This document shows, one piece after another, positions 13,341 to 47,674 of a stretch of DNA of 64,000 nucleotides. Under the pieces are notes generated by a model that saw only the letters and a list, made by a program, of their open reading frames with translations, had not been told where the DNA came from and made no database searches. The stretch is taken from positions 116,190,001-116,254,000 of the forward strand of contig CM059431.1 in the NCBI GenBank assembly GCA_030390025.1. Reading direction: 5' to 3'. This stretch comes from Squalus acanthias. Its lineage: Eukaryota. A program made the position numbers and the translations under genes. Within the stretch, counting starts at the first letter, position 1; each line of letters starts with the position of its first letter.

Positions 13341-14587
13341 AATATGTCATCCGAGGAGTCCTCCAAGAATTTCAGTGAGGATCAAGAAAGTCAGGAGATC
13401 AAATAGAAATTATGGAACCGATATATACATAAAACCTAAAAACTCTGGAGAACTGCTTCATTTAAAAATAGTCTGATAATTTGTGAATAAAGTAGGTGAA
13501 TAAAGATAAATAGCTATTTGAATTACTACAACAATCATTCTAATCCATTCTTTATAGTGGCTGTAGGGGCCTCCAGAGAAAACAACATCATGCAGAAATA
13601 GAAAACTTGGAATTTATTAAATCTCCCAACCTTTTACAATACCCAGGGTGATACATAGTTACATGAATATCTAAATGGTGCATAATTACCTGGATTGCCA
13701 AAATAAATGCTTAAATGTGACCCTTTTTGTATTAACAATTTGAGGGCAAAATATTGGGATACGTTCTCACCAAGGCATGCTCACACAAGAATTGCCTAGA
13801 AAAATAGTTTCAATCGCACTGGTAATATCATCTTACCCATTGAACCAAACTACATGTAATACATGTTCAGAATATGTTGTTTTTGGTACAAATCAACATG
13901 AATCTCCAATATGGTTCAGGTGAAAGTGGGCAATGGGAGAAGGGGGAAACAACAGATAATCCATAGCTTGAAACTTTGGCTGGTGGATGGACAAATCCAA
14001 GAGCTGTTCACTCTTTAGCTCATTTGAACTTAACATTTCATTCCAGTGCTGATAACACTGCAAAGTGTGGACATTTGTAGCTCGTCCTGAATAATTCTGG
14101 TCTTCTACAATCTCTCCATAACTGTAGTAGTCCTCGGTCGAATGACACCAACGCTATTCAAAATTACATTAATAATCTCAAAACTATAATTGTACATTAG
14201 TGATCTAAATAGCATACTCTGCCAAAATTTGCATCACTCATGAACTATTAAATATTCTGCGTTCATGGAACTCATTTTCTATTTAAAATTGTTTCCCAGC
14301 GGGTCTACCCTATATCCTGTGCAAATAATTTAATTACATAAATACATATACTAGTGCTCAGTGGTTAAAATTAGCTGCTGTAAATTGAGAAAAATAAGCA
14401 GTGCATCATGACAACTGAATGTAGCAGTTACTGGATGTCTTAAAATATAAAGGTACATAGGTTGGACATCCCTATCATTTCTGGAAATACTCGCTTACTC
14501 CCTGGAACCAACAGAATATTACAATAAAAACAGAAAATGCTGGAAATACTCAGCAGGTCAGGCAGCATCTGTGGAGAGAGAAACAGA

Positions 14588-14624
14588 ATTAACATTTCAG
14601 GTCGATGACCTTTCCTCAGAAGTG
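14588..14624 (-). ncRNA. Minimal hammerhead ribozyme motif (degenerate)
   Basis: Reverse complement: actt-CTGAGGA-a-aggtc.atc.gacct-GAAA-tg-TT-aatt. Confidence 0.6.
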
Positions 14625-15274
14625 GAAAAAGTTGAAGATGTAAAAGGTTTTTAAGCGAGTGTAGGTGCAGGGAGAGGGGGGAGGGGAGGAAAGAACAAAA
14701 GGGAAGGTCTGTGAGAGGATGGAAGGCAGGAGAGATTAAGAGACAAAAAGGGATGATGGTGCAAGGCAAAAGGAGATGGTAATGGGACAAGTTAAGAAAC
14801 AAAAGATGACTCGAGATGAAGTGTAAATGGCATGGCAGGATGATCAACAGCTGCCATGTGAGAGAGAGGAGAAAATAAAATGATAGGGGCTGAGGTTATG
14901 GTCTGAAATTGTTGAACTCGATGTTGAGTCCAGAAGGCTGTAAAGTGCCTAATCGAAAGATGAGGTGCTGTTCCTCGAGTTTACATTGAGCTTCATTGGA
15001 ACAGTGTAGGAGGCCGAGGACAGAGACGTCAGAGTGGGAGTGGAGCGGAGAATTAAAGTGACAGGCGACCGGAAGCTCGGGGTCACCCTTATGGACTGAA
15101 CGGAGGTGTTCCGCAAAGCGGTCACCCAATCTGCGTTTGGTTTCCTCAATGTAGAGGAGACCGCATCATGAGCAGCGAATACAGTATACTAAAACGCAGA
15201 TTGGGTGACCGCTTTGCGGAACACCTCCATTCCCTACACTTGCTTAAAAACCTGTTCCTTCTCCAACTTTTTTC

Positions 15275-15311
15275 AGTTCTGACGAAAGGTCATCGACCTG
15301 AAACGTTAACT
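15275..15311 (+). ncRNA. Minimal type I hammerhead ribozyme motif
   Basis: agtt-CTGACGA-a-aggtc.atc.gacct-GAAA-cg-TT-aact: stems I and II pair, palindromic ACGT stem III. Confidence 0.82.
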
Positions 15312-16916
15312 TTGTTTCTCTCACTGCAGATGCTGCCTGACCTGCTGAGTGTTTCCAGCATTTTCTGTTTTTATTTCAGATTTCCAGCATCTGCAGTTTT
15401 TTGCTTTTGTAAAAATATTACAATACTTCAGGTAAATAAATGGCAGAAAATTGATGATGTAACAAGGAAAAATAATAGACGTGACCGATTAACCTTGCGT
15501 GCCTTGTTCTTTCCAGCCGTGAAAATTAAATTTGTGTCATTGGGATCTTAGTTGCTTCATTGAGAGACTCAATTTGATTACAACATACCTAGAGGCGTTT
15601 GTGTTATGAGCCATATTGTGAGACATTTTATGTGGTGCTTTGTTATAAAATAAATGCATTGTTCTTTATTTTTGCTACATTAGTGGAATTTTGTGCCTGT
15701 ATAAATTAGACAATTTAAACCAAATATTGATTCTATTCACACACACGCAACAGAAACAAACTTGAAGCGAATGTGCTTGTAATTTTCATCAAATCTAGAG
15801 TTTGTTCTTTTTTTCAAATAAATATCATCTACTGGTAGAATTTGGGATAAAAAAAGATGCATCCCCAAGATGCAGTGAATCATACACCACAGAAGGCGGC
15901 CGTTTGGTCTATCATGCGTGTGCCAATTATTCCCACACCCCCACTCTTTCCCCATAAGCCTGCAAATGTTTCCTTTTCAATTATATATCCAATTATCTTT
16001 TGAAAGTTACTATTGAATCTGCCTCCACCACACTGGAGTAATGGCAGGGTGGGACTTCTGGTCACTCCTTGGGCCGTGATTTTATCGGCACTGAGAGGGC
16101 GGGGTTGGAGGTGGGTCAAAGGGTAAAATCGTTTTGATTGACCTGCCTCCAAACAATTTTCCCAAGTGTTGGGTCCCCGATTTGCGCATGGACCTGGCAC
16201 CTAGCGGCGGGAAGAGGATTAACGCCAATTACCTGCCTATCAACGGGTAGTTGATAGTAGTTGACAGGCTATTTTTGAATTTTGCCACTTCTGCCTCGGG
16301 TTTTCCGATGTCCGGAGACCACGCCAGGTAAGTGTGGCGTGTTGTGAGTCTGCTGTAATGTTTCTGGATTGATGATAGCTGCAGAAGTGGTGTGAAGGAT
16401 CCAATGGTGAGTCTCCGAGGAAAGAAAATGTTGGGAAAATTATTTTTAATGCATTTACACATTTCTTCAGGTAATAAGTTTTGAAATCCATGTCCAGTGC
16501 CACCTCATTGGGAGAACCTCTCTCACCAGTGACAGATCCCTTCTGTCACCTCACCTGCAGCTGCCATCTATTCCAGCCTATGGAGGGAGTCATTGGAGAG
16601 CCTTGGTGCAAGAGCCCACCTTTGTACAGTGATTGTCAGTGTTTGCAGCAACTCAATGCTGTCAAATACTGAAAAATCAGCTGTAAAAAAAAAATTGTGC
16701 ATGGTCCCTTTAAGAAAACCGGCAGATGACGCGTCATCAAATTATCCGGCAAGCCCGCAGGGCGGGCTTAACAAGGCCAATCAATGTAAAACCACATCTG
16801 TGGGCTGGATGCAGTTGGGGGTGGGACTGAAAGCCGGAAACCGCCTGACCCGCACCCAACCCGCCTCCAATGAAAAAATCGCAGCCTTTGACTCCGCCCT
16901 GGACATGACCCATTTT

Positions 16917-17250
16917 CATAAAGAAAGAAAAGAATGACGTGCATTTATATAGCGTCTTTCATGACCTCAGGCCATCCCAAAGCACTTGATAGCCAATGAA
17001 GTACTTTTGAAGTGTAGTTACTGTTGTAATGTAGGAAACGCAGCAGCCAATTTGCGCACAGCAAGCTCCCACAAACAGCAATGTGATAATGATCAGTTAA
17101 TCTGTTTTAGTGATGTTGATTCAGGGATAAATATTGGCCAGGACACCAAGGATAACTCCCCTGCTCTTCTTTAAACTAGTGCCATGGGATCTTTTATGTC
17201 CACCTGAGAGGGTAGACAGGGCCTTGGTTTAACGTCTCATTCGAAAGATG
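16917..17250 (-). mobile_element. DeuSINE (SacSINE1-like), 5'-truncated
   Basis: Reverse complement of the SINE core and tail seen at 710-1012. Confidence 0.85.
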
Positions 17251-18180
17251 GGTAGGGATCATTTGGCATGTAGATTGGGCTCCTGGTGGGATTCCTGCAG
17301 TCAAGAGGGAGCATGCCAGTGCTGAAGAGGAAAATTAAGTTGGACCACCACTGTAGCACCAGAAAAGGCAGCAAGGAAAATTAAAGAGACAGTACAGCCC
17401 CAAAGCTGAAGTAATCTCCTGGCTTTCTGGGGCTTGGAAGAGACCAAGACCTACAAAGGTAAATGTATAGGGGCCAGATTGGAGGGAGAAGGAGCCCTTT
17501 TCCTCCATCTGCAAAATTCGCCACTTCCCCGCGGGTGCTGGATGGGAAAGGGGCAGTCAGTGATGGTCCTGGTGGGGGTGGGAGAAGGGAATTGAAACTT
17601 GGTGGGGAGGAGGCAGTAAAAGTCAACATTAAGTTGGACTAAAATCTATGGCTTAGAAATTCGTCTCGAGCGGTCAATGGAACTGAATATCAGGCACTGC
17701 GTATAATGGGCGGCCGATCCGAAACCACCCGTTCTGCACCACTGCCCGAGACAAACTCCTAGGCCGATATATCTATCTGTTTGCTTTGGAAACTTCCTGG
17801 TAGAGTGATGCAATGACCCATCTTCTATTGCCTGGGATGGCTGAGCAGTTAGCCATAATGGTAGCGCAACTGTATCATTTGGTGATGAGAAAGAAATTAT
17901 TGTTTCCAAAGCCGGCAGTGAATAATTCCATAAGGGCCCACCTTCAGGCGGCAGGCTCTCTTATGCAAATCAGGGTCCTATGATATACATAGAAGCCCGA
18001 TTACCATTTTAGGACTCAATTGAGCAGTGCCTATTCCGTGCACGCATCGCTCACTTCCACCTGAAGGAGAGCCCAGAAGGTAAGCTTCAATTTATTTTCG
18101 CAGGACCGTGCCCAAGAATGGGCCTCCCCACCCGCCTTCCACTTGTGGACCCACCTTTCTCCAAGTCCGGGGGGGGTGAT

Positions 18181-19571
18181 AGAACAGTACAGCACAGTAC
18201 AGGCCCTTCGGCCCTCGATGTTGTGCCGAGCATTGTCCGAAACCAAGATCAAGCTATCCCACTCCCTATCATTCTGGTGTGCTCCATGTGCTTATCCAAT
18301 AACCGCTTGAAAGTTCCTAAAGTGTCCGACTCCACTATCACAGCAGGCAGTCCATTCCACACCCCAACCACTCTCTGAGTAAAGAATCTACCTCGGACAT
18401 CCCTTCTATATCTCCCCCCATGCACCTTATGCCTCCTTGTAACAGCTACATCCACCTGAGGAAATAGTCTCTGAACATCCACTCTATCTATCCCCCTCAT
18501 CATCTTATAAACCTCTATTAAGTCGCCTCTCATCCTCCTCCGCTCTAAAGAGAAAAGCCCTAGCTCCCTCAATCTTTCCTCATAAGACCTCCCCCCCAAA
18601 CCAGACAGCATCCTGGTAAATCTCCTTTGCACTCTTTCCAATGCTTCCACGTCCTTCCTATAGTGAGGTGACCAGAACTGCACACAATATTCCAAATGTG
18701 GTCTCACCAAGGTCCTGTACAGTTGCAGCATAACCTCACGGTTCTTAAACTCAAACCCCTTGTTAATAAACGCTAACACACTATAGGCCTTCTTTACTGC
18801 TCTATCCACTTGAGTGGCAACCTTCAGAGATCTGTGGATATGAACCCCCAGATCCCTCTGTTCCTCCACGTTCCTCAGAACCCTGCCGTTGACCCTGTAA
18901 TCCTTATTCAAATTTGCCCTACCAAAATGAATCACCTCGCACTTATCAGGGTTAAATTCCATCTGCCATTTTTCGGCCCAACTCTGCATCCTATCAATGT
19001 CTCTTTGCAGCCTACAACAGCCCTCCACCTCATCCACTACTCCACCAATCTTGGTGTCATCAGCAAATTTACTGATCCACCCTTCAGTCCCCTCCTCCAA
19101 GTCATTGATAAAAATCACAAACAGCAGAGGACCCAGCACCGACCCCTGTGGCACACCGCTGCTAACTGGTCTCCAGTCCGAAAATTTTCCATCCACCACC
19201 ACCCTCTGCCTTCTATGAGATAGCCAGTTACTTATCCAATCAGCCAAATTTCCCTCTATCCCACAACTCCTTACTTTCTTCATGAGCCGACCATGGGTAA
19301 CCTTATCAAACGCCTTACTAAAATCCATGTATACAACATCAACTGCTCTACCATCATCTACACATTTAGTTACCTCCTCAAAGAATTCAATCAAATTTGT
19401 TAGGCAAGACTTACCCTTCACGAATCCGTGTTGACTATCCCGGATTAAGTTGCATCTTTCCAAATGGTCATAAATCCTATCCCTCAGGCCCTTTTCCATT
19501 ATCTTACCAACCACCGAAGTAAGACTAACCGGCCTATAATTACCAGGGTCATTCCTATTTCCTTTCTTGCA
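18181..19571 (-). mobile_element. Young 5'-truncated CR1 LINE
   Basis: Uninterrupted RT frame; GTGAT duplicated at 18176-18180 and 19572-19576. Confidence 0.93.
18249..19570 (-). CDS. CR1 ORF2 reverse transcriptase (partial)
   Basis: PGNYRPVSLTS, QHGF, YMDFSKAFDKV, GVPQGSVLGP, KFADD; the first ~19 aa of the listed ORF come from flanking DNA. Confidence 0.9.
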
Positions 19572-19814
19572 GTGATCTGGAGCCGGCGAGCTGCTCGGGG
19601 GTGCTCGTTTTCTGCACACAGCTCGCAAGCCCCAAATGAGGCCCAGCCACCCAAAAACTGTACGGGAGGAGATTCTACGCCATATTCCTGGGGATTATGG
19701 CCCCAATATTAATCTAAAGGCAGCTTCCTAGCAGGGGGGTGGAATTGCGTTGTGGAACATGGAAGTCAACTGAATGATTTGGAATCAGCGGTCTAAACTG
19801 CCTTCTGTTGCCTA

Positions 19815-20050
19815 GGCCCTAAGCTCTGGAATTCTCTGCTTAAATCTCTCCGCCTCGCTACCTCTCTCTCCTCCTTTAAAATGCTGCTTAAAACCTTCCT
19901 CTTTGACCAAGCATTTGGTCACTTGCCCTAATTTCTCCTTATGTGGCTCGGTGTCAATCTTTTGGTCTTTTAATACTCCTGTGAAGCAGCTTGGGACATT
20001 TTACTACATTAAAAGTGCTATATAAATACAAGTTGTTGTTGTTGTTGTTG
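19815..20050 (+). mobile_element. L2 3' UTR fragment with short (GTT)n tail
   Basis: Matches the reverse complement of 8971-9185. Confidence 0.8.
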
Positions 20051-22020
20051 AATTGTAACAATTCATATTGTTCTACGGGTTTCACATCTCAAGCTGCGCA
20101 GCGGGTGTGATGCGCACCAGCATGATGCGATCTAAGCTGTATTGAAAGGGACAATGCACAAATGGAAATTGGAGCTGTTTAGGATGGACAGTGGACATAG
20201 AACAAGGGCAGCAGCACCAAGATTTAATGAAGCCTCGCAGGAATCACTGCTGGGTGCAGTCAGGAGCAGGATGGACAGACTTCTCCCCAGCAATGGGAGG
20301 AAGCAAACCTGCTGCTCTCACCAAGAAGGCATGGTTGGAGGTAGCTGAGGAGGTGAGCAGCAGAAGCGTTGTGCCCAGGTGTTGGATGCAATGTAAGAAG
20401 CCATTTAATGACCTCACCAGGTCAGGAATAGTGAGTACATTTGCTGAATCAACTACACCCTGTGCTTTAAGCCCCCGCCCCCTTTCACTTTGTCTTGCTA
20501 AGCGTTCTCCATCACATCACTCCTCCACACCCCCTCAACTTTCAGCAGCACCCAGCCTTCTTTTGATGCACTTCATCATCTCCTCATTTATCCATCCACT
20601 GTTGCCACCCACCCCAATCCTTATGCAATGTGATGCATCTGTCTCATAGTCACCCTCACTGAATGCACTGCATCCCTCCCCTTCACTCACTCACAGGTCT
20701 GTTTTTTCGCACTTTGTAGGAGAAGAGAGCGCAAAACGCAAAGAAGAGGGAGAGGACTGGAGGTGGGCCTGCCACAAGTAGCCCAGCTCACAGATGCAGA
20801 GGTGGAGATAAGTAGCACATCTGCGTCCCTCTCAATCGGAGATGGAGAGACAGGGGGCTTGCAGATAGCTGGTGCCAGAACTACAAATATCTCTGACACA
20901 CATATGCTGATTGTATTTCATCAATGACTGAACTATGAGAAGATTGAAAATGGTGATTGTCAAGGTTGTGACTTTGCCACGACTAAATCATATCCCATTC
21001 CTTTTGTCTTCAAGGGCCTTCACGCATAAAGCAAGTGTCACAGTACATCCATGAGAAAAATTCCTTAGAGGAGCTCATTTCTTCTGAGGGTGCACCATCA
21101 CAGGACATACAGCCATGCACCTGCGCAGATACTTGCACTTCGATGGGTCCACTGAGAGAGTTAGTTGGATTTTCACCTGCTGATTCACACCTCACAAGAC
21201 ACTGGTGGCAGGGACAGCTGCAGAGACTCCATGTCGAGGGGTGCAATCCTCTCCAAGCTCTGCTCAGTTGGACACAGAAGCTGAAACCCGGGGGCTATCG
21301 TTGAGCAGGAGAATGCTAGAGGTGCATCAACAACTTAGCCAGATACTGACAGATCTGTCATGCACACTCCCTACAATAGCAAAAAGGATGGAGGAGTCCA
21401 ACTTGATCGCTGGTGGACTGGTGGTGCAGGGAATTACGAGAATGTCTGCCATGGAGAGAAAGAGTGCCTCCATGGAGCTTCAAGCATGGCTCTCAAATGA
21501 GTCCTGCAGGCCATGGCCACGGCCATGCAGGAGATGTCTGCCACCTTAAACAGGATGACAGACACCGTATCCGTGGCTAACAACGTGTCACTTATCTCCA
21601 CCAAGTTGGTCTGCAAGCAGAGTAGTAGGAGGAATGTTGCACTGGCCCAAGAGAGGGATGATGGTGAAAGGATGAATGGAAGTGGGAACTTCACTCAAAG
21701 CGCTCTCACTTAGAATCATAAAATCAGAGAAATTTACGGCACAGAAGGAGGCCATTCGGCCCATCATGTCCGTGCCAGCCAAAAAAGAGCTATCCAGCCT
21801 AATCCCACTTTCCAGCACTTGGTCCGTAGCCCTGTAGGTTACGACACTTCAAGTGCATTTCCAAGTACTTTTTAAATGTGATGAGGGCCTCTGCCTCTAC
21901 CACCCTTTCAGGCAGTGAGTTCCAGATCAACACCACCCTCTAGATGAAAAAAGTTCTCCTCAACTCTATAATCCTTCGACCAATTACTTTAAATCTATGC
22001 CCCCAGGTTATTGACCTCTC

Positions 22021-22931: not shown

Positions 22932-23281
22932 TCTGCTAAGGGAAATAGGCCCTTCCTATCCACTCTATCTAGGCCCCTCATAATTTTATACACCTCAATT
23001 AAGTCTCCCCTCAGCCTCCTCTGTTCCAGAGAAAACAATCCCAGCCTATCCAATCTTTCCTCCTAGATAAAATTCTCCAGTCCTGGCAACATCCTCATAA
23101 ATCTCCTTTGTATCCTCTCTAGTGCAATCACATCTTTCCTGTAATGTGATGACCAGAACTGTACGCAGTACTCTAGCTGTGGCCTAACTAGTGTTTTATA
23201 CAGTCCAAGTATAACCTCCCTGCTCTTATATTTTAAGAAGTCGCACAACACCAGGTTATAGTCCAACAGATTTATTTAATT

Positions 23282-23320
23282 TTACAAGCTTTCGGAACAG
23301 TTCGCTCCTTCGTCAGGTAA
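23282..23320 (-). ncRNA. Minimal hammerhead ribozyme motif
   Basis: Exact reverse complement of 25589-25627. Confidence 0.82.
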
Positions 23321-23542
23321 GTTAGCAGTGAGAGAATCTCCCAGAATTCACAATTTAAACACAGACAAAATATATTCAAATCTTTCCTACATCAAAGAGC
23401 ACAGCCAAGACAATGAGATGTGTCCCAGGGGGTCCAACGTGTCAAACCACCTGCTGGCTGCATATCCTGTCAATCTGTGTAGGTTCTTGTGTTAGTCTTT
23501 TTAAAAAAAAAAACACCTGGGAAGACCGGCCATGATGTCAAG

Positions 23543-24758
23543 TCACGTTCTGTATCGTGACATGAACCCGATATCGCGATTGAGGCCATCCTCATGAGTG
23601 CGGAACTTGGCTATCAGTTTCTGCTCTATGATTTTGCGCTGTCGTGTATCTCGAAGGCCGCCTTGGAGAACGCTTACCCGCATATCCGAGGCTGAATGCC
23701 CCTGGCTGCTGAAGTGTTCCCCGACTGGGAGGCAACCCTCCTGCCTGGCGATTGTTGCGCGGTGTCCGTTCATACGTTGTCTCAGTGTCTGCATGGTCTC
23801 GCCGATGTACCATGCTCTGGAGCATCCTTTACTGCAACGTATCAGGTAGACAACGTTGGCCGAGTCACATGAGTATGTACCATGTACCTGGTGGGTAGTG
23901 TCCTCACGTGTGATGATGGTATCTGTGTCCATGATTTGGCATGTCTTGCAGAGGTTGCCGTGGCAGGGTTGTGTGGTGTCTTGGTTGCTGTTCTCCTGAA
24001 AGATGGGTAATCTGCTGCGAACGATGGTACTTTTGAGGTTAGGTGGCTGCTTGAAGGCGAGTAGTGGAGGCGTGGGGATGGCCTTAGCAAGGTGTTCGTC
24101 GTCATCGATGACATGTTGAAGGCTGCGAAGAACATGGCGTAGTTTTTCCGCTCCGGGGAAGTACTGGACGACGTAGGGTACTCTGTTGGTTGTGTCCCGT
24201 GTTCGTCTTCTGAGGAGGTCTATGCGGTTTTTCGCTGTGGCCCGTCGGAACTGTCGATCGACGAGTCGAGCGTCATATCCCGTTCTTACGAGGGCGTCTT
24301 TCAGTGTCCGTAGGTGTCCATCGCGTTCCTCCTCGTCTGAGCAGATCCTGTGTATTCGCAGGGCTTGTCCATAGGGGATGGCTTCTTTAACGTGGTTAGG
24401 GTGGAAGCTGGAGAAGTGGAGCATCGTGAGGTTGTCCGTGGGCTTGCGGTAGAGTGAAGTGCTGAGGCGTCCGTCTTTGATGGAGATTCGTGTGTCCAAG
24501 AATGAAACCGATTCTGAGGAGTAGTCCATGGTGAGTTTGATGGTGGGATGGAACCTGTTGATGCTATCGTGTAGTCCTTTCAGTGATCCTTCGCCGTGGG
24601 TCCAAAGGAAGAAGATGTCGTCGATGTATCTGGTGTACAGCGTTGGTTGGAGGTCCTGTGCAGCGAAGAAGTCTTGCTCGAACTTGTGCATGAAGATGTT
24701 GGCATATTGGGGTGCGAATTTGGTCCCCATGGCTGTTCCGTGTGTTTGGGTAAAAAAA
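23543..24758 (-). CDS. PLE RT (partial) + Zn knuckle + GIY-YIG endonuclease
   Basis: GTAMGTKFAP, YTRYIDDIF, FLDT, LYRKPT, CHGNLCKTC, VVYLIRC..WYIGET; no stops, 5'-truncated. Confidence 0.93.
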
Positions 24759-25366
24759 CGGAAAAACTACGCCATGTTCTTCGCAGCCTTCAACATGTCA
24801 TCGATGACGACGAACACCTTGCTAAGGCCATCCCCACGCCTCCACTACTCGCCTTCAAGCAGCCACCTAACCTCAAAAGTACCATCGTTCGCAGCAGATT
24901 ACCCATCTTTCAGGAGAACAGCAACCAAGACACCACACAACCCTGCCACGGCAACCTCTGCAAGACATGCCAAATCATGGACACAGATACCATCATCACA
25001 CGTGAGGACACTACCCACCAGGTACACGGTACATACTCATGTGACTCGGCCAACGTTGTCTACCTGATACGTTGCAGTAAAGGATGCTCCAGAGCATGGT
25101 ACATCGGCGAGACCATGCAGACACTGAGACAACGTATGAACGGACACCGCGCAACAATCGCCAGGCAGGAGGGTTGCCTCCCAGTCGGGGAACACTTCAG
25201 CAGCCAGGGGCATTCAGCCTCGGATATGCGGGTAAGCGTTCTCCAAGGCGGCCTTCGAGATACACGACAGCGCAAAATCATAGAGCAGAAACTGATAGCC
25301 AAGTTCCGCACTCATGAGGATGGCCTCAATCGCGATATCGGGTTCATGTCACGATACAGAACGTGA
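24759..25366 (+). CDS. Duplicated PLE Zn knuckle + GIY-YIG (partial)
   Basis: Protein identical to the C-terminus of 23543-24758. Confidence 0.85.
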
Positions 25367-25588
25367 CTTGACATCATGGCCGGTCTTCCCAGGTGTTTTT
25401 TTTTTTAAAAAGACTAACACAAGAACCTACACAGATTGACAGGATATGCAGCCAGCAGGTGGTTTGACACGTTGGACCCCCTGGGACACATCTAATTGTC
25501 TTGGCTGTGCTCTTTGATGTAGGAAAGATTTGAATATATTTTGTCTGTGTTTAAATTGTGAATTCTGGGAGATTCTCTCACTGCTAAC

Positions 25589-25627
25589 TTACCTGACGAA
25601 GGAGCGAACTGTTCCGAAAGCTTGTAA
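25589..25627 (+). ncRNA. Minimal type I hammerhead ribozyme motif
   Basis: ttac-CTGACGA-a-ggagc.gaact.gttcc-GAAA-gc-TT-gtaa. Confidence 0.82.
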
Positions 25628-26440
25628 AATTAAATAAATCTGTTGGACTATAACCTGGTGTTGTGCGACTTCTCATTTTTGTCCACCCCAGTCCAACGCC
25701 GGCATCTCCACATCATGACTTATATTTTAAGCCTCGGCTAATAAAGGAAAGCATCCTGTATGCCTTCTTAACCACCTTATCTACCTGTCCTGCTACCTTC
25801 AGGGATCTGTGGACATGCACTCCAAGGCCTTCTGTTCCTCTACACTTCTCAGTATCCTACCATTTATTGTGTATTCCCTTGCCTTGTTAGTCCTCCCCAA
25901 ATGCATTAAGTCACACTTCTCCGGATTGAACTCCATTTGTCACTTTTTTGCCCACTTGACCAGCCCATTGATATCTTCCTTCAGTCTACAGCTTTCTTCT
26001 TAACTATCGACCACACAGCCAATTTTTGTGTCATCTGGAAACTTTTTAATCATGCCCCCTACATTGAAGTCTAAATCATTGATATATACCACAAAAATCA
26101 AGAGACCTAGTTTGAGCCCTGCGGAATCCCACTGGAAACAACTTTCCAGTCACAAAAACCCCCGTCGACCATTACCCTTTGCTTCCTGCCACTGAGCCAA
26201 TTTTGGATCCAACTTGCCACTTTCTCTTGGATCCCATGGGCTTTTAGTTTTCAGACCAGTCTGCCATGAGGGATCTTGTCAAAAGCCTTGCTAAAATCCA
26301 TGTAGACTACATCAAACGCGCTACCCTCATCAACCCTCCTTGTTACCTCCTCAAAAAATTCAATCTGTTAGTCACGCACGACCTTCCCTTAACAAATCCA
26401 TGCTGACTGTCCTTGATTAATCCGTGTCTTTCTAAATGAT

Positions 26441-26905
26441 AGCCAAGTTCTAAACTGATAGCCAATGAGGACGGCCTCAACCGGGATCTTGGTTTCATGT
26501 CACACTACATGACGTAGAGTCATCCAGACTCGAGTCGTCGTTGTCTTGTTCACAGATGTGATTTCCAGTTTTAAAAAAAGTCAAAAGCTTAACTGCAGAC
26601 TGCAGCATTTGACACATTGGACCCCCAGTGACCCCACCTCATTGTCTTAGCTGTATTTTGCTGTGTCTTTGATGTAATGCCTTCCTGACTGATTGTATCT
26701 TTGCCGAGGTGTGATGGAGGGCAGTCAGAAACACATTGTTCTCTGTCTATATATGCTTTGCTGATTTATATTCCCTCACTTTACCTGACGAAGGAGCAGC
26801 GCTCCAAAAGCTCGTGATTTCAAATAAAACTGTTGGACTATAACCTGGTGTTGTGCGACTTCTCATTTTTGTCCACCCCAGTCCAACACCGGCATCTCCG
26901 CATCA
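26441..26905 (+). mobile_element. Penelope-like 3' fragment (family A relative)
   Basis: EDGLNRDLGFMSHY end, pLTR and tail; TSD TTTCTAAATGAT at 26429-26440 and 26906-26917. Confidence 0.88.
26781..26817 (+). ncRNA. Hammerhead motif with GAAA>AAAA core mutation
   Basis: ttac-CTGACGA-a-ggagc.agc.gctcc-AAAA-gc-TC-gtga. Confidence 0.65.
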
Positions 26906-27311
26906 TTTCTAAATGATGATTAATACTGTCCCTCAGAATTTTTTCCAGTAATTTGCCCACCGTATTTCACACTCCTCCTTAACTACAATGTCTGCATCAC
27001 CCCTCTTTTTTGTGAAGACAAATGCAAAGTATTCATTAAGAACCATACCCACATCTTCTGCCTCAAAATACAGATTACCTTTTTGGTCTTGAATAGGCCC
27101 TACTCTTTCCTTAGTTATCTCTTGCTCTTAATATATTTATAAAACATCTTTGGATTTTCCTTGATTTTACTTGCCAATATTTTTTCAAGCCCTCTCTTTA
27201 TTTCCGAATTTCCTTTTCAATTTCATCCCTGCACTTTCTATACTCCTCGAGGCTTTCTGCAATATTTAGCTCTCGGTATCTGACACAAGCTTCCCTTTTT
27301 TGCCTTATCCT

Positions 27312-32297: not shown

Positions 32298-33480
32298 TTA
32301 TGTTTCACAATAGGTGAACCTTCGCGATATTAGAGTATCTCTGGCATCGCGGACAGCAGTGTCAGTGGCTGGTCTGGCAATGGGTGTCCCATCTTCTTCC
32401 TCCTCCTCCTCTTCCTGCTCTTCCTCCATTTTCTCCTCATCTGAAGATGAGTGATGAGCCTCTTCATCCTCCTCTGCCTGCAATCCTCCCTCCTGCTCAA
32501 TGTTGTGCAGGACACAGAACACCACTATGATTCTGGGCACCCTCGCTGGCGAGCACCGAAAAGTGCCTCCAGACCTAGCTAGGCACCTGAAGCGCATCTT
32601 CAACATTCCGATGGCTTGTTCGATGACAAACCTGGTGGTCATGTGGCTCTTGTTGCAGTGCTCCTGCACCTCATTGGTGGGGTTCCTCACAGGTTTCATG
32701 ACGAAAGTTTGAAGTTGGTATCGCTTGTCTCCTACGAGCCAGCCTTTAAGTCTGCTTCCTGGAACAAAAATGTCTGGAATATTGGGCTGCCGCAATATGA
32801 AGGCATCATGACAGCTCCCAGGGAATCTGGCACAGACCTTCTTGTGGTTGCACACCAGCTACGCATTGATGGACGAATATCACTTGCAGTTTATAAAAAC
32901 TCCTGATTGCTGTGGTGGTGCTCGGATTGCCGCGTGTGTACAGTTGATGGCACCCTGTACCTTTGGAAATCAAGCCAGAGAGGTGAATCCAAGTGCCCAC
33001 TCATTCTGGCTATTGTCGTCACAGGGGAAATTTACATAAATGTCGGCGCTGGCAAACAACCCACCATTATGCATTTATGTACAGCCAACTGGGAGATCCT
33101 GGATATATCGGCGGTAGCACTCTGGAAGGATCTGGAGGCAAATGATTTGAGGGCGGGAGTCACTTTCACAGTCACTGGTAATGAGTGGCCACCTGGTCCA
33201 GCAGAGAGCATGTCTTCTTCTAGGAGGCTGTAGATGTCTGCCGCCACTTGACATGACAATCTCAGCCCGCGGAATCACTGCTCTTCTGAGAGATCAAGGA
33301 AGCTGAGCCTCTGTCTGTAAATCCTGTGACGTGTGTAGTGCCTCCTGCGACCTCGGCCCCTCTACTATCCACCTCCCTCCTGAGCACGTGCTGATCCCAC
33401 CCCAGCACTTCATCGCTGCTATGCATGGTGATGCTCTTCCTCCTCTGATGTGCTATCAAACACATCCAACGTGACTTCCA
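32298..33480 (-). pseudogene. Harbinger DDE transposase (HARBI1-like), frameshifted
   Basis: LPVTVKVT, ARFPGSCHDAFILRQ, WLVGDKRY, RFVIEQAIGMLKMRFRCL, CVLHN, acidic tract. Confidence 0.88.
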
Positions 33481-35520: not shown

Positions 35521-35559
35521 TATTGACAACTGTGAGGCTCCTGCATTGTCAGACATTTT

Positions 35560-38500: not shown

Positions 38501-38817
38501 TGAAGCGTGGAGCACACTTTGGCCTACTGCTGGACATAGTTGATGAAGAAGGCGAAGACAGCAATGGCCATAAAGGTCGCAGTTTCCAAAAGAAGCAAGG
38601 CTGCTTGCAGGCCTTAAATCCAACAGCATTGATGACGTCATCGGAGGCGACTTTCTGTCTGAAAAGACTCATTGGGCCAGGGGTTCCCACACGCAGGAAA
38701 TCAATTGCCTAATTAGGGGAAAATCCCACTTTTTCAGCACTTCCATTAGGAGTCGGGGTCCTGGCACGATTTCCACCTGACACACTCCAGCCCGCCCACA
38801 CTGACAAAATTCAGCCC
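35560..38817. mobile_element. Non-autonomous Harbinger retaining its Myb/SANT gene; transposase mostly deleted
   Basis: TIRs GGGCTCGATTTT / AAAATTCAGCCC; ends homologous to MITEs 2839 and 41955; no matching TSD. Confidence 0.8.
36575..38537 (-). pseudogene. Myb/SANT-like gene; exons 38537-38298, 37976-37817, 37660-36575
   Basis: APRFNEPSLQALVEE..WLQVAQEV..RTWLQCRKRFHDL; GT-AG sites; coiled coil and basic tail; probable frameshifts in exon 3. Confidence 0.85.
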
Positions 38818-40722
38818 AATGTTTTCTGCTGTTCTGTAGATACACCTGTACTCCTTTAAGAACATAAGAAATATGAGCAGGAATAGGCTATATGGCCCAT
38901 CAAGCCTGCTCCGCCATTCAATAAGATCATGGCTGAACTTTTACATCAACTCCACTTTCCCGCTTAAAATGGCTGCAGTGTTTTAAATCCTGAATCTCTA
39001 AACTTCCCTCCCTTCCACCCAGCAGTCGTAAACCTATTACTCCAAACCCACCCCACATATATAATGAGGGCCTTGGTAGAAAATTGCAGTGAGTTAGCAA
39101 CAGAGTCAGATGGGTATATTTTTTTACAGAATGTATATTTTTTTACAGAATCTGAGGTTTTTCTGCAGATGGCTACCTCTTCTGTACGTCTTACCCTGAA
39201 AGATGCTAAGATTAGTGTTCACGTTGCTAACCAATTATCTGCTGAAATGGAGGTTCCCCCAAGTCCAGATGATGAGGACTCCATTCAAGGAATATTGGCT
39301 GAAGTCAGCACACCTACACCACCAAGAAGGAAAAGCAGAAAGTGCTAGGAGACAAAGAAACTCAACTCCAACACCAAGTAAGGGAATCAAGGGATATGGG
39401 GATCAGGTGGGCAAGCGGAGATGAGGTAGATGATCAGCCGTGATCTTATTGAATGACGGAGCAGGCTCGAGGGGCCGTATGGCCTACTCCTGCTCCTATT
39501 TCTTATGTTCTTATAACTCATCTGAGTCAGATGTGGAATAGATATGGCATAACAAACAGTCCCAGAAGGTGAAGGAACCACTTTATTTGTTGGGGACTTC
39601 ATAGTTAGACTTTCTGACAGGGAACATTTTAGGAAGAAAGAGTTAAATGCCACTGTGCTTTATTTTCCAGGGGCTAGGATAACTGACATACATAGTAGAT
39701 TAGACGGGGCATTAAAAGGAATGCCTAAGGGAGCTTTTATTTGCTATTTATGTGGGAATTAATTACATAATGGAAAGAAGGTCTGTGAACACGAAGCAAA
39801 AAAAAAGTACGTAACTTCAAACAGCATGGTGTTCCGGTCATTGTTTCAGGTTTCTTGCCAATTATGAAGGGTACTGCTGACTGGGACAGCAAAATAGTGG
39901 ATTTCAACAGAACGGGGCAAAGAGGAAGAAGATTCCATTCATTGACAACTGGACGGGTTCGTGGGAAGATCAGGAATGTGCAATAAGGATGAAATTCATC
40001 GGAGCAAGGCAGGTGTAAAGCTTTTCACTGCTACTGTGGAAGAAGCACTCAGGATTTCTATAAACTGATCAGGCCAGCAGACAAAATGCACACCTGACAA
40101 AGTAACAGTGCGAGTTCAAACACGGTGTTATTTTAGACACTGCAAGCAGTAATTCACCTGTCTAGTTGGACAAACTACAAAAGAAAGGAATCGGGGACAA
40201 AATTACGCCAAAGTATCTGGGGATTTTACTAAGTGCGTCAATACAAATGCTAGAATTATTAAGACTAAACTGACAGAAGTATAGATGATGTTATTATTGG
40301 AAACTGCTGTGTTTTCAAGATAGATCTCTATTTCACAAAACTCAATATCCATTGTTTAGGATGGATAGGGTCGATAGGGGTAGAGTGGCCATCCTTTGTT
40401 AGGAAAGGAATAAAAGTAGTACAGTGAGAAGATACTGCAAATGGAGATAATAGTAGAAAAAAATCTGCCTCTAATTAGACTTTGTTAGAAACACTAGAGT
40501 CCTTCCAGTCTGTGTTCTAGAGCATTGATCCGAGAGAGAGAAATGTATCTACTGCTATGTACATCAGCTGACTAAGCTAAACATAGTGTGATGGGAGATT
40601 AAAATTATCCACTTATAAGGTGGACAAATGAGGGACAGGCACAAGAAATAAGAGGCCTCCAAGATGTCATCAATGATTTTTTCCCAATTCATCATATGAG
40701 GACTAGAACTAGAGGGAACAAT

Positions 40723-41513
40723 GGGCCATAATCTGCTGTGGTGGGGCATCAAACAGCATTTGCCGTTAGTTAGACCAGCCCTTGCACGTTTAGGTTTTTC
40801 CATTTTTTACATGGCAAGTTGCTGAAAGTGCGAGCTGATAACGTCGCAGTGAGGGAAACAGGGCATCTGAGACCTGAGTGAACAGGGCAAGCAACTGTGT
40901 ATCTCCTTAACCAATCAGATGGAAGGATTGTGAAATTAACAGTACAAGGAATGAGAAAGAAGTGTAAATTAGAGTGGGTGAATTCAATGTCAAATCAGGT
41001 ACAGAAAGAGAAATAAGAGAAGGAAAGAAAGATTGGATTAAGAGAGAGAGAAAAAAGAGACAGAAATGAAAAGTTTTTTAAAAATTGAAATTTAAAGTTT
41101 TACATTTTTAAAATCTCCAACAACAATTAAAACCTGAAGGAATGAGACTCCACACTTGTAATAGTTAATTTTCAGTGCCAGAGAGGTTGACTGGTAATAA
41201 TTAACACTTCACATTGTTAAAAGGGTACTTAGACTGAAATGGACAAGACTTAACTTTTTGTGTCGCGTTTAGTTCATAGCTACTGTGCAAATACAGCAAC
41301 TTCCTGTCATTCAATGCGTTTCAATGGTGAGGCAGATAGCGAGATCCCATTTTCGCGAACCTAACAGCAGAATGGCGAAACTCGGACAGCAACTTTTGGA
41401 TATTGGTATTTAACCGTACATCTGCCCCTCGCCTGAAGTTGCTGTACCATTTACGCATAAATAATGGCGACCACCATTAGCCTCACCGTTATTTTGACAG
41501 CAAATTATGGCCC
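40723..41513. mobile_element. MITE
   Basis: TIRs GGGCCATAATCTGCTG / CAGCAAATTATGGCCC, AAT TSD; inverted relative at 56315-58812. Confidence 0.88.
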
Positions 41514-41954
41514 AATATCTTAGATTTGGTATTCACTAATGAGCCAAAGTTGTTAGATGACCGAGAGGGGGGAGAGTACCTTGCTGATTGAGACTACTCC
41601 ATTCTAAGATGCAATAGATGGGACTGTAACAAGTTTAGGGATAATTGTATACTGCTGTCACATTTTCAAAAGATTTGGCTTATGGAAATGAAAAGAAACC
41701 AAAAATGGTGGCAAAATGGCAGAGAGAGATGGGTGAAGATTGTTGCATCCAAAAAGGAAATGGGACACTGAAAGGTTGTGAAACCTTATGTATTCTTATG
41801 AGAAGGAGTAAAGTATGGTGAGAGAAAGTTACTATGGCTTCATGGAACTGAGTTAGGCAATTAAATTAGCAACCTTCCCTTCATTGATTACCTTAGTGAT
41901 CTGATTTATAGAGCTGTAGAAAAAGATATTTTTAGGCCTACAAAATAAGTAATA

Positions 41955-42603
41955 GGGCTGGATTTTGATACTGGGGCGGGTTGGGGTCGTGTCATCCGCA
42001 TTTCGTGTTATCCACCCGACTGCAATTGGATGTGGGAGATTGGTGCAATTTTCACCTAATTGGGCAATTGAGTTCCAGCATGTGGGAACCCATGAACCAA
42101 TTAGTGGTTTCAGTCTGAAAGTCGCCTTTGATGATGTCATCAATGCTGCTGCATTGCAGGTCAGAAACTGCCTGGCCTTTGCTGTGAGAGGACCTGGATG
42201 CAAAATGAGCAGCAGCTCTATCTGGAGAGAGAGAGAGAGAGAGAATTTTTTTGCTCCACCACTCCCAGATGCCAGCCAGCCACTGATATTCAGCTATCCA
42301 CATGTGCTCCCGCCAGGTTTCACAATCGTGGTTCAGAACAGGCGTGCTTCACGTAGAACAAGGGTTAAAATCACAAAGCCCTTTCAAAATGGCATTATAG
42401 AGCCACTTTAGTGCTTGTTAAGGGCCTTAACAGCCTATCCCATCTCTTAAAGGCGGGACGCAGGCGGGACCAGCAGACACGATTTCATCAAAATTGTGTG
42501 GAGGAGGGATGGAGGCGGACTTGTGCCTGCCCGCCACTTTTCACAATTTTAACCCCCCACACGCCTCCAAACCCACCTCCACGGGTCAATGAAAATCCAG
42601 CCC
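41955..42603. mobile_element. Harbinger-derived MITE
   Basis: GGGCTGGATTTT / AAAATCCAGCCC, ATA TSD. Confidence 0.9.
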
Positions 42604-42731
42604 ATAGTCTTCTTGAGAGGACAAGGAATAAAAAGCAGTTAGTGTAAAAAGAAAAGCAACCTAAAATAAAACTAGACAAAAAGATGGTTGAATGTAGCCA
42701 AATAATGGGAAAGTATTTTTTGCTTAAATTA

Positions 42732-43687
42732 GGGCGTGAATTTTAATTGGGAGGCTGGTTGGGAGCGGGGATGCTCGGAAGTGATCTGGAAACCTGGGAG
42801 AACGGGATTCCCACAGGCCCTGCTGAATTTAATGACAGGGCCTGATTTGCATTGGAAACCTCTGTTTTCAAACCACAGCCAACCAGGTTGCGAGGCCGGC
42901 TGGCTGCATGCGAGTAGGCCTGCGGCACTAGGCCAAGAGAGGAGGGAGGGAGGGATCGCGTGTGGGCTAGGCTGTGGGTCGGGGGGGGGAGGGGGCAGAG
43001 GAGCGGGGGTTCAGGACCGATCGGGGGCCGAAGTAGCTGATTGGAGGGCCGGAGAAGCATGGGGGGTTGGGGGAGGGGGTGGGGGGATGCGGGTGGTGCA
43101 GGTGAGCATCGTAGGCCCGGCAGCGGCTGATTGCGGGGCCGGGTGAGCATCGGAGGGCAGGAGGAGTGGGGGGGGATGGGGGGGGTGGGAGCTGGTGAGC
43201 ACCGTAGGGGCGGGAGGGGGGTGGTGGGTGATCTTCGATGGGCCGAAGCAGCATGATCGGCGGGCTGGAGGAGCATCGGGGGTGGGGGGGAGGCATTGTG
43301 GGGGTCATCGGAGGCCTGGGAGGGATCGGAGGCCTCGTGGGTTGGTTGCCGATCATGGGGGGGTGGGTTAGGCAGGGACACTGGATTCAGGAGGTAAGTG
43401 TAAAGTCCTCGCCTTACTTTACCTTAGTTCCCCAAGGCCTGCAAAACCCGACCAGCCACAGTTAAATTTAAAATGGAGGTTAAACCTGAGGCACGGCAGC
43501 GTCATTATAATATTTAAATGGCCGACCTGCCTCCTGGGAGTGGGTGGTTGCCCGCCCCCACACCCACCCCCGTCCCGCCTCCTTTAAAACCGGAAGTGGG
43601 CGGGTTGGGTTCGGGATTCAGACTCTTAACACTTTAAATTCCCACCCGACCACAACACACCTGTATTTTTGGGTTAAAACTCCCCTT
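42732..43687. mobile_element. MITE with G-rich core
   Basis: Degenerate TIRs; related to 3778 and 53950; many G-runs at 42940-43370. Confidence 0.65.
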
Positions 43688-44565
43688 CTAGGAATCAGAG
43701 TTCAGTTAGAAAATGAATATAACCATTCCAGGCTGACAGGCAGAGTTATAGATGATGAGTACGGTGTGGCAGAAGATTTGAACAGATACTTTGTATCTAT
43801 ATATAATCGGAGAGGTTTGATCTGGCCCCTTGTCTTGGGGATAAAATAAAAAATTCAAATAATTGCTTACAATCTCCAAGGAAATGGTCCTTGCTAAATT
43901 AAAAGCACTCAAGGTGGAAGAAGGTCACTCAAGGCCAGATTTAACATTTCCCAGGTTAATGATGATTGGAGGAAAGAATATGTGGTGCTCTTATTTTAAA
44001 TTGGATTAAAATCATAACCTGGTAACTATCGACCAGTTAGTTCAGCCTCAGTGATGGGTACATTAATGGAAGGCATCATTAGAGATGTTATTAATAATCA
44101 CATAGAGTATGCAATAGTGTGCTAAAATTAAGTCCTATGGGGGGAAAAATTCAGTTGGTTGCGCCTCCCGTTAGCGCCTTAAGAAGGCGCTAATGGGGTG
44201 CAAAGCAACTAGCGCCCGGGCGCAGCGATGTTTGCGCCGCTCGCGAAATTAACTAGACATTTTGCGGCGGCGCTAAACTTTACTGCCACGATCTCCTGCG
44301 CACGCAGATCTTGACGTCATACGAGGGTGCAACGCCCTTGTGGCACCCCGGAGCAGAAATTGAGTGGCGCCCCCATCCTTTCCGCCTGGTGCAACCAACG
44401 ACCGGAAGACTGGAACGCTCCCCAGTCACTGTGGGGCTGGGAAGGTACTATTTAAAGGGGGCCTCTTCCTGTCTTTCTATGTGGTTGACATTTTTGCACC
44501 ACTCGTTCTGAGAGAGAGAGAGAGACATTCGGAGAGAGAGAAAGAGAGACTTCTGCATTGAGTCA

Positions 44566-45813
44566 ATGCTGTGTGAGGTAGTTTTGGCTACTGATCATAA
44601 CTTTGCAGGTACTTTGGTTTTTGACCTTCATAACTTTGATTGCCAAGAGACTATAGGGGCTGCACTGATTGGGGGCGTCGTCCTGCGCCACCAGAATCGG
44701 AGGACACAGAGACGCAGAGAGAGAGTGGCAATCATGGCCAGACGGAGGAGGGCCAACAGGCCTCTGTACAGGAGACCTTACCCTCCCAGGGTATATCGCC
44801 AACAATTCACATATATTAATATGTCTGAGGAGCAGTGTTTGTGAAGGCTGCGCTTCAGCAAGGAGGTAGTCACTGAGCTCTGCCACCTGCTGCAGCCAGA
44901 TCTGCAGCCTCAACTGAGGTCCAGGACGTCTCTGTCGGTGGCAGTGAAGATCACAGTGGCTCTTTACTTTTATGCCACTGGCTCATTTCAATCAGCTACT
45001 GGAGACATCGCCAATAACTCCCAGTTCGCGGTGCATTGCTGCATCCGTCAGGTCACAAATGCCCTCTTTAAAAGGAGACAAGAGTACATCTCTTTCCCCA
45101 TGACCCCAGACAAGCAGCAAGAACGCGCAATGGGCTTTGCTAGGATAGCGGGCTTCCCCATGGTGCAGGGCGCCATTGACTGCACGCATGTGGCTTTGCG
45201 TGCTCCGCATGAGAATGCCGAGGATTTCCGCAACAGAAAGGTGTTCCATTCCTTAAACGTTCAGTTGGTCTGTGACCACAGACAGCTGATACTCGCTGTC
45301 AATGCCCACTATCCTGGCAGCTGCCACGATGCATTCATCCTGCGCCAGACTACTGTGGCAGAACTTTTCCAGGCACCGCATCAGCCAGTTGGTTGGCTTC
45401 TCGGGGACAAGGGATATCCACTGAGCACCTGGCTGATGACACCGCTCCGTACGCCCAACACCCCTGCTGAGCTGCGGTACAACGAGAGCCATCAAGCTAC
45501 CAGGAACATCGTTGAGCACACAATCGGCGTGCTCAAGCAACGGTTCCGCTGTCTGGACCATTCTGGAGGAGCCCTGCAGTACTCGCCTGAGCGAGGTTCC
45601 CACTTCATAGTTGTGTGCTGCATGCTGCATAACCTGGCAATCCTCAGGACCCAGCCAATGCCACCAGGCCTTGGAGCACCACCAGAGGAGGAGGAGGAAG
45701 AGGAGGAGGAAGAGGAGGAGGATGATCATCAGCAGCACCAAGGCGGGAGGGAGGCCCACAATGTAGAAACTGGAAGGGCCGTCCGTCAACGGCTGATAGC
45801 AAGCCGCTTCTAG
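44566..45813 (+). pseudogene. Harbinger DDE transposase (HARBI1-like) with a single in-frame TGA at 44842-44844
   Basis: GAIDCTHV, GSCHDAFIL, WLLGDKGY, RNIVEHTIGVLKQRFRCL; ORFs 44566 and 44938 share a frame. Confidence 0.92.
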
Positions 45814-46413
45814 GCCCCTGCTGAGGAAATGGCTTCTGCCATTGAGAACAACATGAATGAAACCAACCCGCAACCCCTAAGCCGGCCAAGGCAGCAATGA
45901 TTCCAAAGACTAAACATGTACATTTTGAATACAAAAACTTTTTTATTTCACAAACTCTGTGTGTGTCATTTCCTCATGACAAACTAATAGAAAGAAACAC
46001 AAAAACACAGTCATTAACATAACTGGTTCTCATAACCTGGAGATAATGTTCAAAAGTTTGACCACGAACCTCGGCCTTTAATAAAAAAATGACCAACATT
46101 TTGTCACACCTCCTACTTTTTGCCCTTTGAGGGTGATCTCCTTCCCTTGCGCACTTCCCCCCCTTCCCACCCTACTGCTCCTCCATAATGGGACCTCAGT
46201 GGCTGCAGCAAGGCTGGTGGAAGGCTGCTGATTGTCAGAACCTGAGACTGCAGATGCCCTTGAAGGACGGCCTCAACCAGCTCTGGGCCTGGAGGGCCCG
46301 GCTGCAGACTGCACCAACTCTGCATGGGCGGCAGCAGTCTGGGCTACAGGCAGTGGCAAGTGCAGTGGAGAAGTGACAGTGGTGGCAGCAGGAATGCTGT
46401 CATCTTGAGAGAG

Positions 46414-46632
46414 TGATGCGGAGATGCCGGTGTTGGACTGGGGTGGACACAAATGAGAACTCGCACAACACCAGGTTATAGTCCAACAGTTTTATTTGAA
46501 ATTACGAGCTTTCGGAGCTCTGCTTCTTCTTCAGGTACAGGTACCTGTACCTGAAGAAGGAGCAGAGCTCTGAAAGCTCGTAATTTCAAATAAAACTGTT
46601 GGACTATAACCTGGTGTTGTGCGACTTCTCAT
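46414..46632. mobile_element. Miniature palindromic Penelope pLTR pair with two hammerhead motifs (46502-46538 -, 46547-46583 +)
   Basis: 180-bp palindrome 46453-46632 centred on GGTACC; TCATCTTGAGAGAG duplicated at 46400-46413 and 46629-46642. Confidence 0.9.
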
Positions 46633-47674
46633 CTTGAGAGAGGACAGCAACTCCCTGCTCGACCGACACACTGGCACTCCCACGGGGCAGCACTTCAGCA
46701 TCTGGAGCAATCTGCTGGAGCACAGATTGCTGGCCTGCCGGGGCGCGGTGAGAGCCCCGGGGAAATGTGTACGAACCATTGAGGATGGCAGCAGTTAGTG
46801 CTCGCGTGGCCTCAATCTGAGTCTGCAGGAGAGCTGTCAGAGATGGGTTCATGGCAGCCATTGACTGAATTGCAGCACTAAACATTTGCATGGCATCCGC
46901 CTGTGCTACAGCGAAGTGCTCCACACTCCTTGCCAGTGATTCAATGCATTAGGGCACCCTTCCCACTGCACCCATGAGCTCAGTGTGCATGTCCACCGCC
47001 TGGGTGTTCATTTCAGCGATGAGCCGCTCCTCCTCTGCGTCCAGTGCAGTAGGACTAGCTGGCATACTCTCCCTCCGGGGAGAAGGCCCCCGTGCTTCCC
47101 TACCCCCATGGCGTTGCTGCAGCCCACTGGGTCCTGGAGCTTCACCCTCATCAGACCCTTCCCCCCTGCTCCCCTCCAGGGAAGGCGTGTTCCCAGTGTG
47201 GGCATGGGCTTCCTCGGGAGAGGGTGGCGCTGATGCTCCGCCTTCATCTTCCTCCTCGGCTGCAGCTTCACTCCCACTGGCAGCTTGAGGGCCCGTCTCC
47301 TCAGCTGGTGAATCACCATCTGAAAGCAGGGAGGTACAAGAGTGGCTTTAGCGTGAGGACAGGGGGGCAGTAAGGGAGGAATGAGTGCAGTGATTTAGTA
47401 AGTTGGATTGAAAGTGTCAAAGGCTGGTGTTGTGAGGGACAAGTGGAAGGACAGAGGACAAAAAGGTGATGACCTTACCATTGCTGTCCAGAACGGGGTC
47501 GGCGTCTCCAGTGGCGACGGGACCGATCACCCGGCTTGCCACAATCCTGTGGATGCGCGCCTCAAGATTGCTGAGGGTTGCAGCTGAGGCCGCCCTCCAC
47601 CCGTCCGTTGCTGCTGTCTCCTATTATGAGATAGCTTGGCCTGCAAGAAAAATCACGGCGTCTGAGTAAATATA

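Follow-up and report, generated by a model that had tools for sequence, protein, structure and literature searches.

A 64,000-nucleotide (nt) stretch of the Squalus acanthias genome (CM059431.1, assembly GCA_030390025.1; hereafter the window, within which coordinates are counted) contains three insertions of Penelope-like elements (PLEs), each composed of two head-to-head arms that carry hammerhead motifs and are enclosed as one unit by a single target site duplication (TSD) of 12-14 bp. In each insertion one arm runs to the end of a terminal tail and the other stops at a site short of it, an asymmetry shared by all 23 TSD-bounded pairs found outside the window (26 of 26 pairs with the three in the window). 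Taken together, the pairs show that each arose in one event, that 3' ends fall at two fixed sites with one used per arm, that TSD length is tight and that TSD and element overlap in small excess. The best-fitting reading, which we regard as probable, is that both 3' overhangs of one staggered cut prime reverse transcription, one at each of two fixed start sites, and that the two cDNAs are then end-joined. The three insertions are laid out as follows.

14515-14526: left TSD of insertion 1, 12 bp; inner 4 nt also fit the element
14527-15191, minus strand: short-ended arm of insertion 1, family B, with the C-terminal GIY-YIG part (14896-15192, one stop), 3' untranslated region (UTR) and hammerhead core (14589-14619)
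15192-15232, plus strand: inverted filler of insertion 1, 41 nt, matching the endonuclease region of the left arm at 40/41 positions; overlaps the start of the right arm
15233-15413, plus strand: tailed arm of insertion 1, with hammerhead core (15279-15309) and tail (15376-15413)
15414-15425: right TSD of insertion 1, 12 bp
23225-23237: left TSD of insertion 2, 13 bp, within a LINE-like repeat; inner 2 nt fit the element
23238-24758, minus strand: short-ended arm of insertion 2, family A, with open frame, 3' UTR and hammerhead core (23284-23316)
23546-24751, minus strand: open frame of that arm, with the C-terminal part of the reverse transcriptase (RT), C-x4-C-x2-C linker and GIY-YIG
24759-25718, plus strand: tailed arm of insertion 2, 913/915 identical to the left arm, with hammerhead core (25593-25625) and tail (25674-25718)
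25719-25731: right TSD of insertion 2, 13 bp
46400-46413: left TSD of insertion 3, 14 bp
46414-46542, minus strand: tailed arm of insertion 3, second subfamily of family A, with tail (46414-46452) and hammerhead core (46504-46534)
46543-46628, plus strand: short-ended arm of insertion 3, a perfect palindrome with the left arm, with no unpaired centre
46629-46642: right TSD of insertion 3, 14 bp; first 4 nt fit the element

The initial annotation of this DNA had described three inverted insertions with 3' ends outward, one arm of each ending some 35-45 nt early where TSD bases match the element, and measurement bore this description out. An exact TSD surrounds both arms in all three pairs, and the inverted arms match over 143 nt at 90% identity in insertion 1, over 915 nt at 99.8% (2 mismatches) in insertion 2, and over 90 nt at 97% (3 mismatches, no spacer) in insertion 3. 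The tailed arm continues past the end of this similarity by 38, 45 and 39 nt, respectively (42, 47 and 43 nt when measured from the TSD edge), and TSD and element overlap at the short end by 4, 2 and 4 nt. The outward polarity of the 3' ends follows from the RT-GIY-YIG frames together with the hammerhead cores in all six arms. In insertion 2, where the short-ended arm extends 608 nt further 5' than the tailed arm, the flanks joined over one TSD match, for 204 nt and with no gaps, the repeat at 18600-18950, a paralogue that is itself uninterrupted; the TSD is therefore a true duplication, and loose contig ends at 25719 give the same sign. Insertions 2 and 3 come from two subfamilies of a single family, and all three insertions are ordinary dead copies. 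No poly(A) is present at any of their ends.

The elements have the features of endonuclease-containing (EN+) PLEs. Family A, as represented by insertion 2, encodes within one open reading frame (ORF) of 402 amino acids the C-terminal half of an RT followed by a C-terminal GIY-YIG/CCHH domain, and the window copies follow the EN+ pattern of truncation at the 5' end and inverted or tandem arrangement, with an optional tail of 30-40 bp and a TSD. The RT matched Pfam RVT_1 at E=2.7e-4, weaker than the curated cut-off. At E<=1e-20, 299 long homologues were recovered, for many of which PF00078 was precomputed, and PF01541 for some; the closest is 65% identical and the best named ones, from turtles, about 42%. 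Family B (insertion 1) is represented by an endonuclease fragment alone, 41% identical to family A. A zinc-finger-like cysteine motif lying in the linker that joins RT to endonuclease is described as a mark of the Neptune clade (PMC8557442); the C-x4-C-x2-C motif upstream of the GIY-YIG domain points to a placement of family A toward that clade, and the family B fragment does not reach this region. All six arms matched the pattern of a minimal hammerhead core whose helix III is palindromic. Rfam models detected no hammerhead in the arms, and the Rfam miRNA matches on insertion 3 were rejected as reflecting the palindrome only, with scores far under the gathering thresholds. Scans of viral and metagenome contigs with family A DNA patterns returned 0 matches, and a protein scan of viral contigs gave no confirmed match.

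The arrangement was then sought in other assemblies (G001, G002 and G005), whose contigs rich in PLE ORFs and hammerheads were taken for animal host DNA. The 160 stretches examined were partly chosen for opposing motifs, and pair counts from them are therefore not unbiased. The first 120 stretches gave 23 pairs, 19 with a TSD of at least 10 bp (L129, in a microsatellite, L162 and L163, at a contig end, and L170, with a 7-bp TSD, were left out; for L168 the nearer of two repeats was used as the TSD). The last 40 gave five more, four of them so bounded, which brings the head-to-head pairs with such a TSD, from two other assemblies, to 23 of 28. Symmetric pairs, both-tailed or both-short, would equally have been accepted by the search, and independent choice of ends would produce the uniform result in all 26 pairs with a probability of at most 0.5^26. 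TSDs are 11-13 bp long in 22/26 pairs and 78% A+T. Nor are the arms chance neighbours, which the initial annotation had set as a refuting condition: among 100 of 115 hammerhead matches in G002, 13 same-family neighbours lie head-to-head versus 1 tail-to-tail (P=0.002). Tails measured 17-47 nt in 17 of the first 22 pairs and 80-140 nt in the other five (L122, L155, L165, L166 and L180), the latter well over the usually quoted 30-40 nt. More generally, the prokaryote-labelled assemblies G001-G005 hold many contigs with eukaryotic retroelements, apparently host contamination.

Single-arm copies and end positions also point to two sites. The window contains three such copies:

26441-26905, plus strand: single-arm tailed family A copy; 12-bp TSD at 26429-26440 and 26906-26917
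51730-51825, plus strand: single-arm short-ended family A copy; no clear TSD
3674-3751, minus strand: single-arm tailed family B fragment; no clear TSD

The short ends of family A (23238, 46628-46632 and 51825) cluster within about 6 nt of one site, in agreement with the recurrence noted initially, and the bimodal distribution of ends proposed as a check was recovered. Among the 24 strongest matches in one G005 family, the short site is the end point of 12, the tail end that of 11 (of which two are one duplicated locus) and a position between them that of 1; the flanks diverge at the short site. In four contig sets aligned to the family A interval 25480-25790, summed depth by bin falls at 25667-25688, holds a shelf through the tail and falls again at 25711-25732. 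The first drop, from bins 25656-66 to 25678-88, was 8.56M to 2.34M in X1, 7.25M to 4.35M in X2, 34.3k to 11.6k in X10 and 920 to 144 in X11, values that are qualitative and give no true ratio, being inflated by graph fragmentation and distorted by diverged subfamilies. Among the loose ends listed, 46 X1 contigs exit the element at 25717 into unrelated flanks (agreement 0.38).

Several further observations concern these copies and ends. The single tailed copy has a short duplication at its 5' junction (26441-26470), where the TSD end fits the element. Two family A insertions (51730; 46540-46546) start 3-11 nt upstream of the hammerhead, a position that would suit stalling of the RT at this structure. 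Five joints in X1 and X2 connect other family A short ends with paralogues of the repeat hit by insertion 2, at almost identical positions (25663-25749); these could reflect site preference or merely high copy numbers and, being compatible with the latter, were left uncounted. The tails of the two window families are able to form a stem with the upstream pseudo-long terminal repeat (pLTR), of 13 bp (15324-15397) and 9 bp (25642-25698), that would set the short site within the enclosed region. A stem of this kind was rejected as a general feature: 2/16 families passed p<0.05, and the tendency of the short site to be unpaired was not significant (P=0.10).

The joint between the arms bears most directly on fold-back or self-priming. 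Here a single template, either antisense RNA or the first cDNA, would fold back and be copied to give a hairpin, and resolution by the endonuclease would leave only one side with the tail; PMC3846280 proposed self-priming from an antisense template, and PMC8557442 resolution by the endonuclease. Twenty-two pairs were scored at the joint: 10 have an orientable spacer, L166 is conflicting, L131 and L169 are unresolved, and 9 align as one palindrome. The untailed arm reaches further 5' in five of the ten resolved pairs (L121, L122, L181 and insertions 1 and 2) and the tailed arm in the other five. Because each arm has sequence that the other lacks, simple fold-back is excluded in five of the ten: where the untailed arm holds 5' sequence absent from its tailed partner, fold-back would need a later, precise trimming of the template arm to the short site. 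Single short-ended copies and the use of the short site as an RT start site in vitro (PMC11167929) also count against it. In its favor are arms that are usually near-identical, the 41-nt filler of insertion 1, which is a local fold-back copy, and near-perfect palindromic centres, with 0 unpaired nt in insertion 3, 1 in L161, 6 in L165, 13 in L155 and 14 in L173, L240 also being near-perfect. On balance, fold-back is an unlikely origin for these pairs.

Comparison of the arms also bears on the number of templates. Private alleles, absent from other copies, are shared by both arms at 8 sites in 5 pairs, whereas 3 non-CpG sites hint at two sources; L170, with a third local copy next to it, accounts for two of these (L156 could not be aligned cleanly). 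Two source RNAs for insertion 1 are unsupported; its arms differ at 16/151 sites (11%) and its filler differs from the left arm at 1/41 (Fisher P=0.13). In the zero-spacer palindromic pair L240 (L240:1220-1371; G005:C59), a single case, the start of each arm is no more than 1 nt away from the predicted hammerhead cleavage site, as would fit a self-cleaved RNA as template. Hammerhead-cut 5' ends were rejected as a rule, since the starts of the matches examined do not cluster there.

The initial annotation held that one target strand is primed at the RNA end and that TSD microhomology marks the short arm. The 10-nt summed overlap in the three window junctions is in excess (P=0.0008-0.012, two-sided null; a one-sided null was dropped because it overstated significance). 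Outside the window, short-end overlap averaged 1.84 nt versus 0.84 nt by chance in the first 19 pairs (P=0.0002) and 1.65 versus 0.87 nt in all 23 (P=0.0017), with P=0.0007 in G002 (n=14), and off-register controls averaged about 0.7 nt versus 2.05 nt in register. At the tailed end, 12/22 pairs were measurable; taking the best sister copy biases that estimate upward, and the mean was 1.83 nt (P=0.013) compared with 2.0 nt at the short ends. Thus the excess at the short site is real but small, and microhomology may not be special to the short arm. TSD length and short-end overlap were not correlated (rho 0.13, P=0.56). At the tailed end of L168, the target repeats the last tail bases 3 nt out of register, resembling primer slippage.

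These overlaps also bear on an L1-like version, in which one strand primes without pairing at the physical 3' end of the RNA and the other anneals internally by microhomology. Measurable tailed ends in the window overlap the TSD by 0, 0 and 1 nt, compared with 4, 2 and 4 nt at the short ends, and without L146, one 8-nt case, the tailed-end mean falls to 1.27 versus 0.84 nt (P=0.12); both results favor the RNA end, as does the finding that a search for tails running into the ORF in the paired families gave chance-level matches only. The upward-biased mean in the 12 pairs points the other way, and whereas L1 pieces represent different parts of the RNA, PLE arms share up to 915 nt. Moreover, the published descriptions place the tail at the ORF start in the Drosophila virilis and Adineta vaga elements (PMC2377424, PMC3846280) and both start sites inside the RNA in vitro (PMC11167929). 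The pLTR of L081 and L151 runs on for about 70 nt into the start of an ORF, evidence that the short site is internal and of nothing beyond that. Priming at the RNA end is decidedly doubtful, and the initial reading is supported only in part: priming from both target ends fits best, and its RNA-end component is unsupported.

Less probable again is copying of the second arm from DNA, whether a sense strand produced on the spot or a donor copy, once the second target end has invaded at the short site. The same end product would result, the joint has templated filler, and intron retention by PLEs leaves the nature of the template open (PMC8557442); however, in five pairs the short arm is the longer one, so its partner cannot be the template, and a fixed invasion point needs extra explanation where RNA start sites have been demonstrated in vitro (PMC11167929). 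Two separate insertions, as neighbours or into each other's pLTR, are very improbable, and for TSD-bounded pairs refuted, despite the abundance of the family and the divergence of the insertion 1 arms, since one TSD encloses both arms, the arms come from one subfamily, head-to-head order prevails by 13:1 among the G002 matches considered, and all 26 pairs are heterotypic.

Priming from both ends of one cut would proceed as follows. In a single retrotransposition event, the GIY-YIG endonuclease would make one nick per strand in an AT-rich target, with an offset of about 11-13 nt, and so create two 3' overhangs, each of which would prime on the element RNA, one at a distal site (the tail end) and one at a proximal site 30-45 nt, sometimes more, upstream. 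Both sites would be internal to the RNA, as shown in vitro for another PLE, and 1-4 bases of pairing between primer and RNA may help to fix the register, as the excess at the short site suggests. The two cDNAs would stop independently and then be joined end to end, sometimes with a short templated filler, judging from the junctions. The strict one-long-one-short rule argues for a single coordinated complex whose two sites are not equivalent, the simplest being a protein dimer. Such a complex would copy either the same RNA twice or two RNAs of common source. In vitro, the Poseidon protein of Anolis carolinensis (PAc) is reported to cut and extend both strands, is modelled as a dimer, and uses two RT start sites that lie inside the RNA and flank the tail (PMC11167929).

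Several points weigh against priming from both ends. The evidence is end-product sequence throughout, with no intermediate seen, and the contig depths are no more than qualitative. Unpaired centres of 0-14 nt in 5/8 compact palindromic pairs are fitted equally well by fold-back. Overlap at the short end was 2, 0, 1 and 0 nt in the last four outside pairs, showing no excess, and was not significant in G005 alone (P=0.098, n=5), and apparent pairing could also arise if the endonuclease prefers targets that look like the element itself. Nor is dual priming obligatory, since many copies are single-armed and 0/20 G001 loci have an inverted pair. In addition, the PAc start site is described as not differing between top and bottom strands and as not homologous to the cut DNA (PMC11167929).

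In a more specific version, offered tentatively, the dimer would sit on one RNA and its RTs would occupy the two encoded start sites, one overhang feeding each, so that the RNA is copied twice and the trailing RT displaces the first cDNA. If true, this would account at once for the tail, the one-long-one-short rule and the shared private alleles, and also the palindromic pairs whose arms end at the same 5' point, one of them within 1 nt of a predicted hammerhead cut.

Elsewhere in the window, insertion 3 sits among ORFs at 44845-45813, 32298-32858 and 47562-48179, which we take to resemble PIF/Harbinger transposase and its Myb/SANT partners, and a long AAC/ACC-type compound microsatellite occupies 8182-8980.

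The geometry itself is already published (PMC2377424, PMC3846280, PMC8557442); the paired-end counts and the outside test are what the current study adds. As described in those reports, EN+ PLEs with inverted pLTRs (A. vaga Pen2a, PMC3846280; D. virilis, PMC2377424) share head-to-head 5'-truncated arms with the window elements, and EN+ PLEs in the three reports share the optional one-sided tail of 30-40 bp, the single TSD, palindromes at the joint and a hammerhead in the pLTR. D. virilis Penelope has a 34-37 bp repeat and inverted termini (PMC2377424); in A. vaga the tail is optional at one inverted pLTR, junctions are palindromic, and TSDs are 8-10 bp, compared with 12-14 bp in the window (PMC3846280). 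The available sections of these papers invoke self-priming or endonuclease resolution and contain no tally of one-long-one-short ends or of junction overlap (PMC3846280, PMC2377424, PMC8557442). Nothing on paired use of start sites was found in the accessible parts of PMC9977147 and 10.64898/2026.07.22.740005, and the literature search, with PLE papers of 2004-2006 outside its reach, found no paper proposing or tallying it. In the minimal PLE hammerheads of PMC4209133 each pLTR likewise has a core whose helix III is palindromic, and opposite-strand pairs 100-700 bp apart are reported there.

L1 twin priming, as described in PMC2912911, likewise has both target ends priming on element RNA, giving inverted pieces with 3' ends outward and microhomology at the junction. 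It differs in using the poly(A) 3' end and a variable internal site, whereas both sites are fixed and tens of bases apart in the PLE pairs. The L1 pattern of non-overlapping cDNA regions is absent here, the arms sharing 90-915 nt, and microhomology at the internally primed junction is present, though weak in the second batch of pairs. The closest parallel is PAc, for which two start sites around the tail, AT-rich targets, cutting and extension of both strands and a predicted dimer are described (PMC11167929). PAc belongs to the Penelope/Poseidon clade, whereas the family A linker is Neptune-type, and the consulted parts of that paper report no strand bias in the start site and do not tie the two sites to inverted pairs (PMC11167929). 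How PLE tandem and inverted units and the tail, often found at one end only, are formed is named as an open problem in PMC8557442. PLE RTs are the sister group of telomerase, and a two-site dimer would therefore bear on the evolution of templated priming. By tying the published genomic layout to the start sites published in vitro, the counts presented here make this mechanism directly testable.

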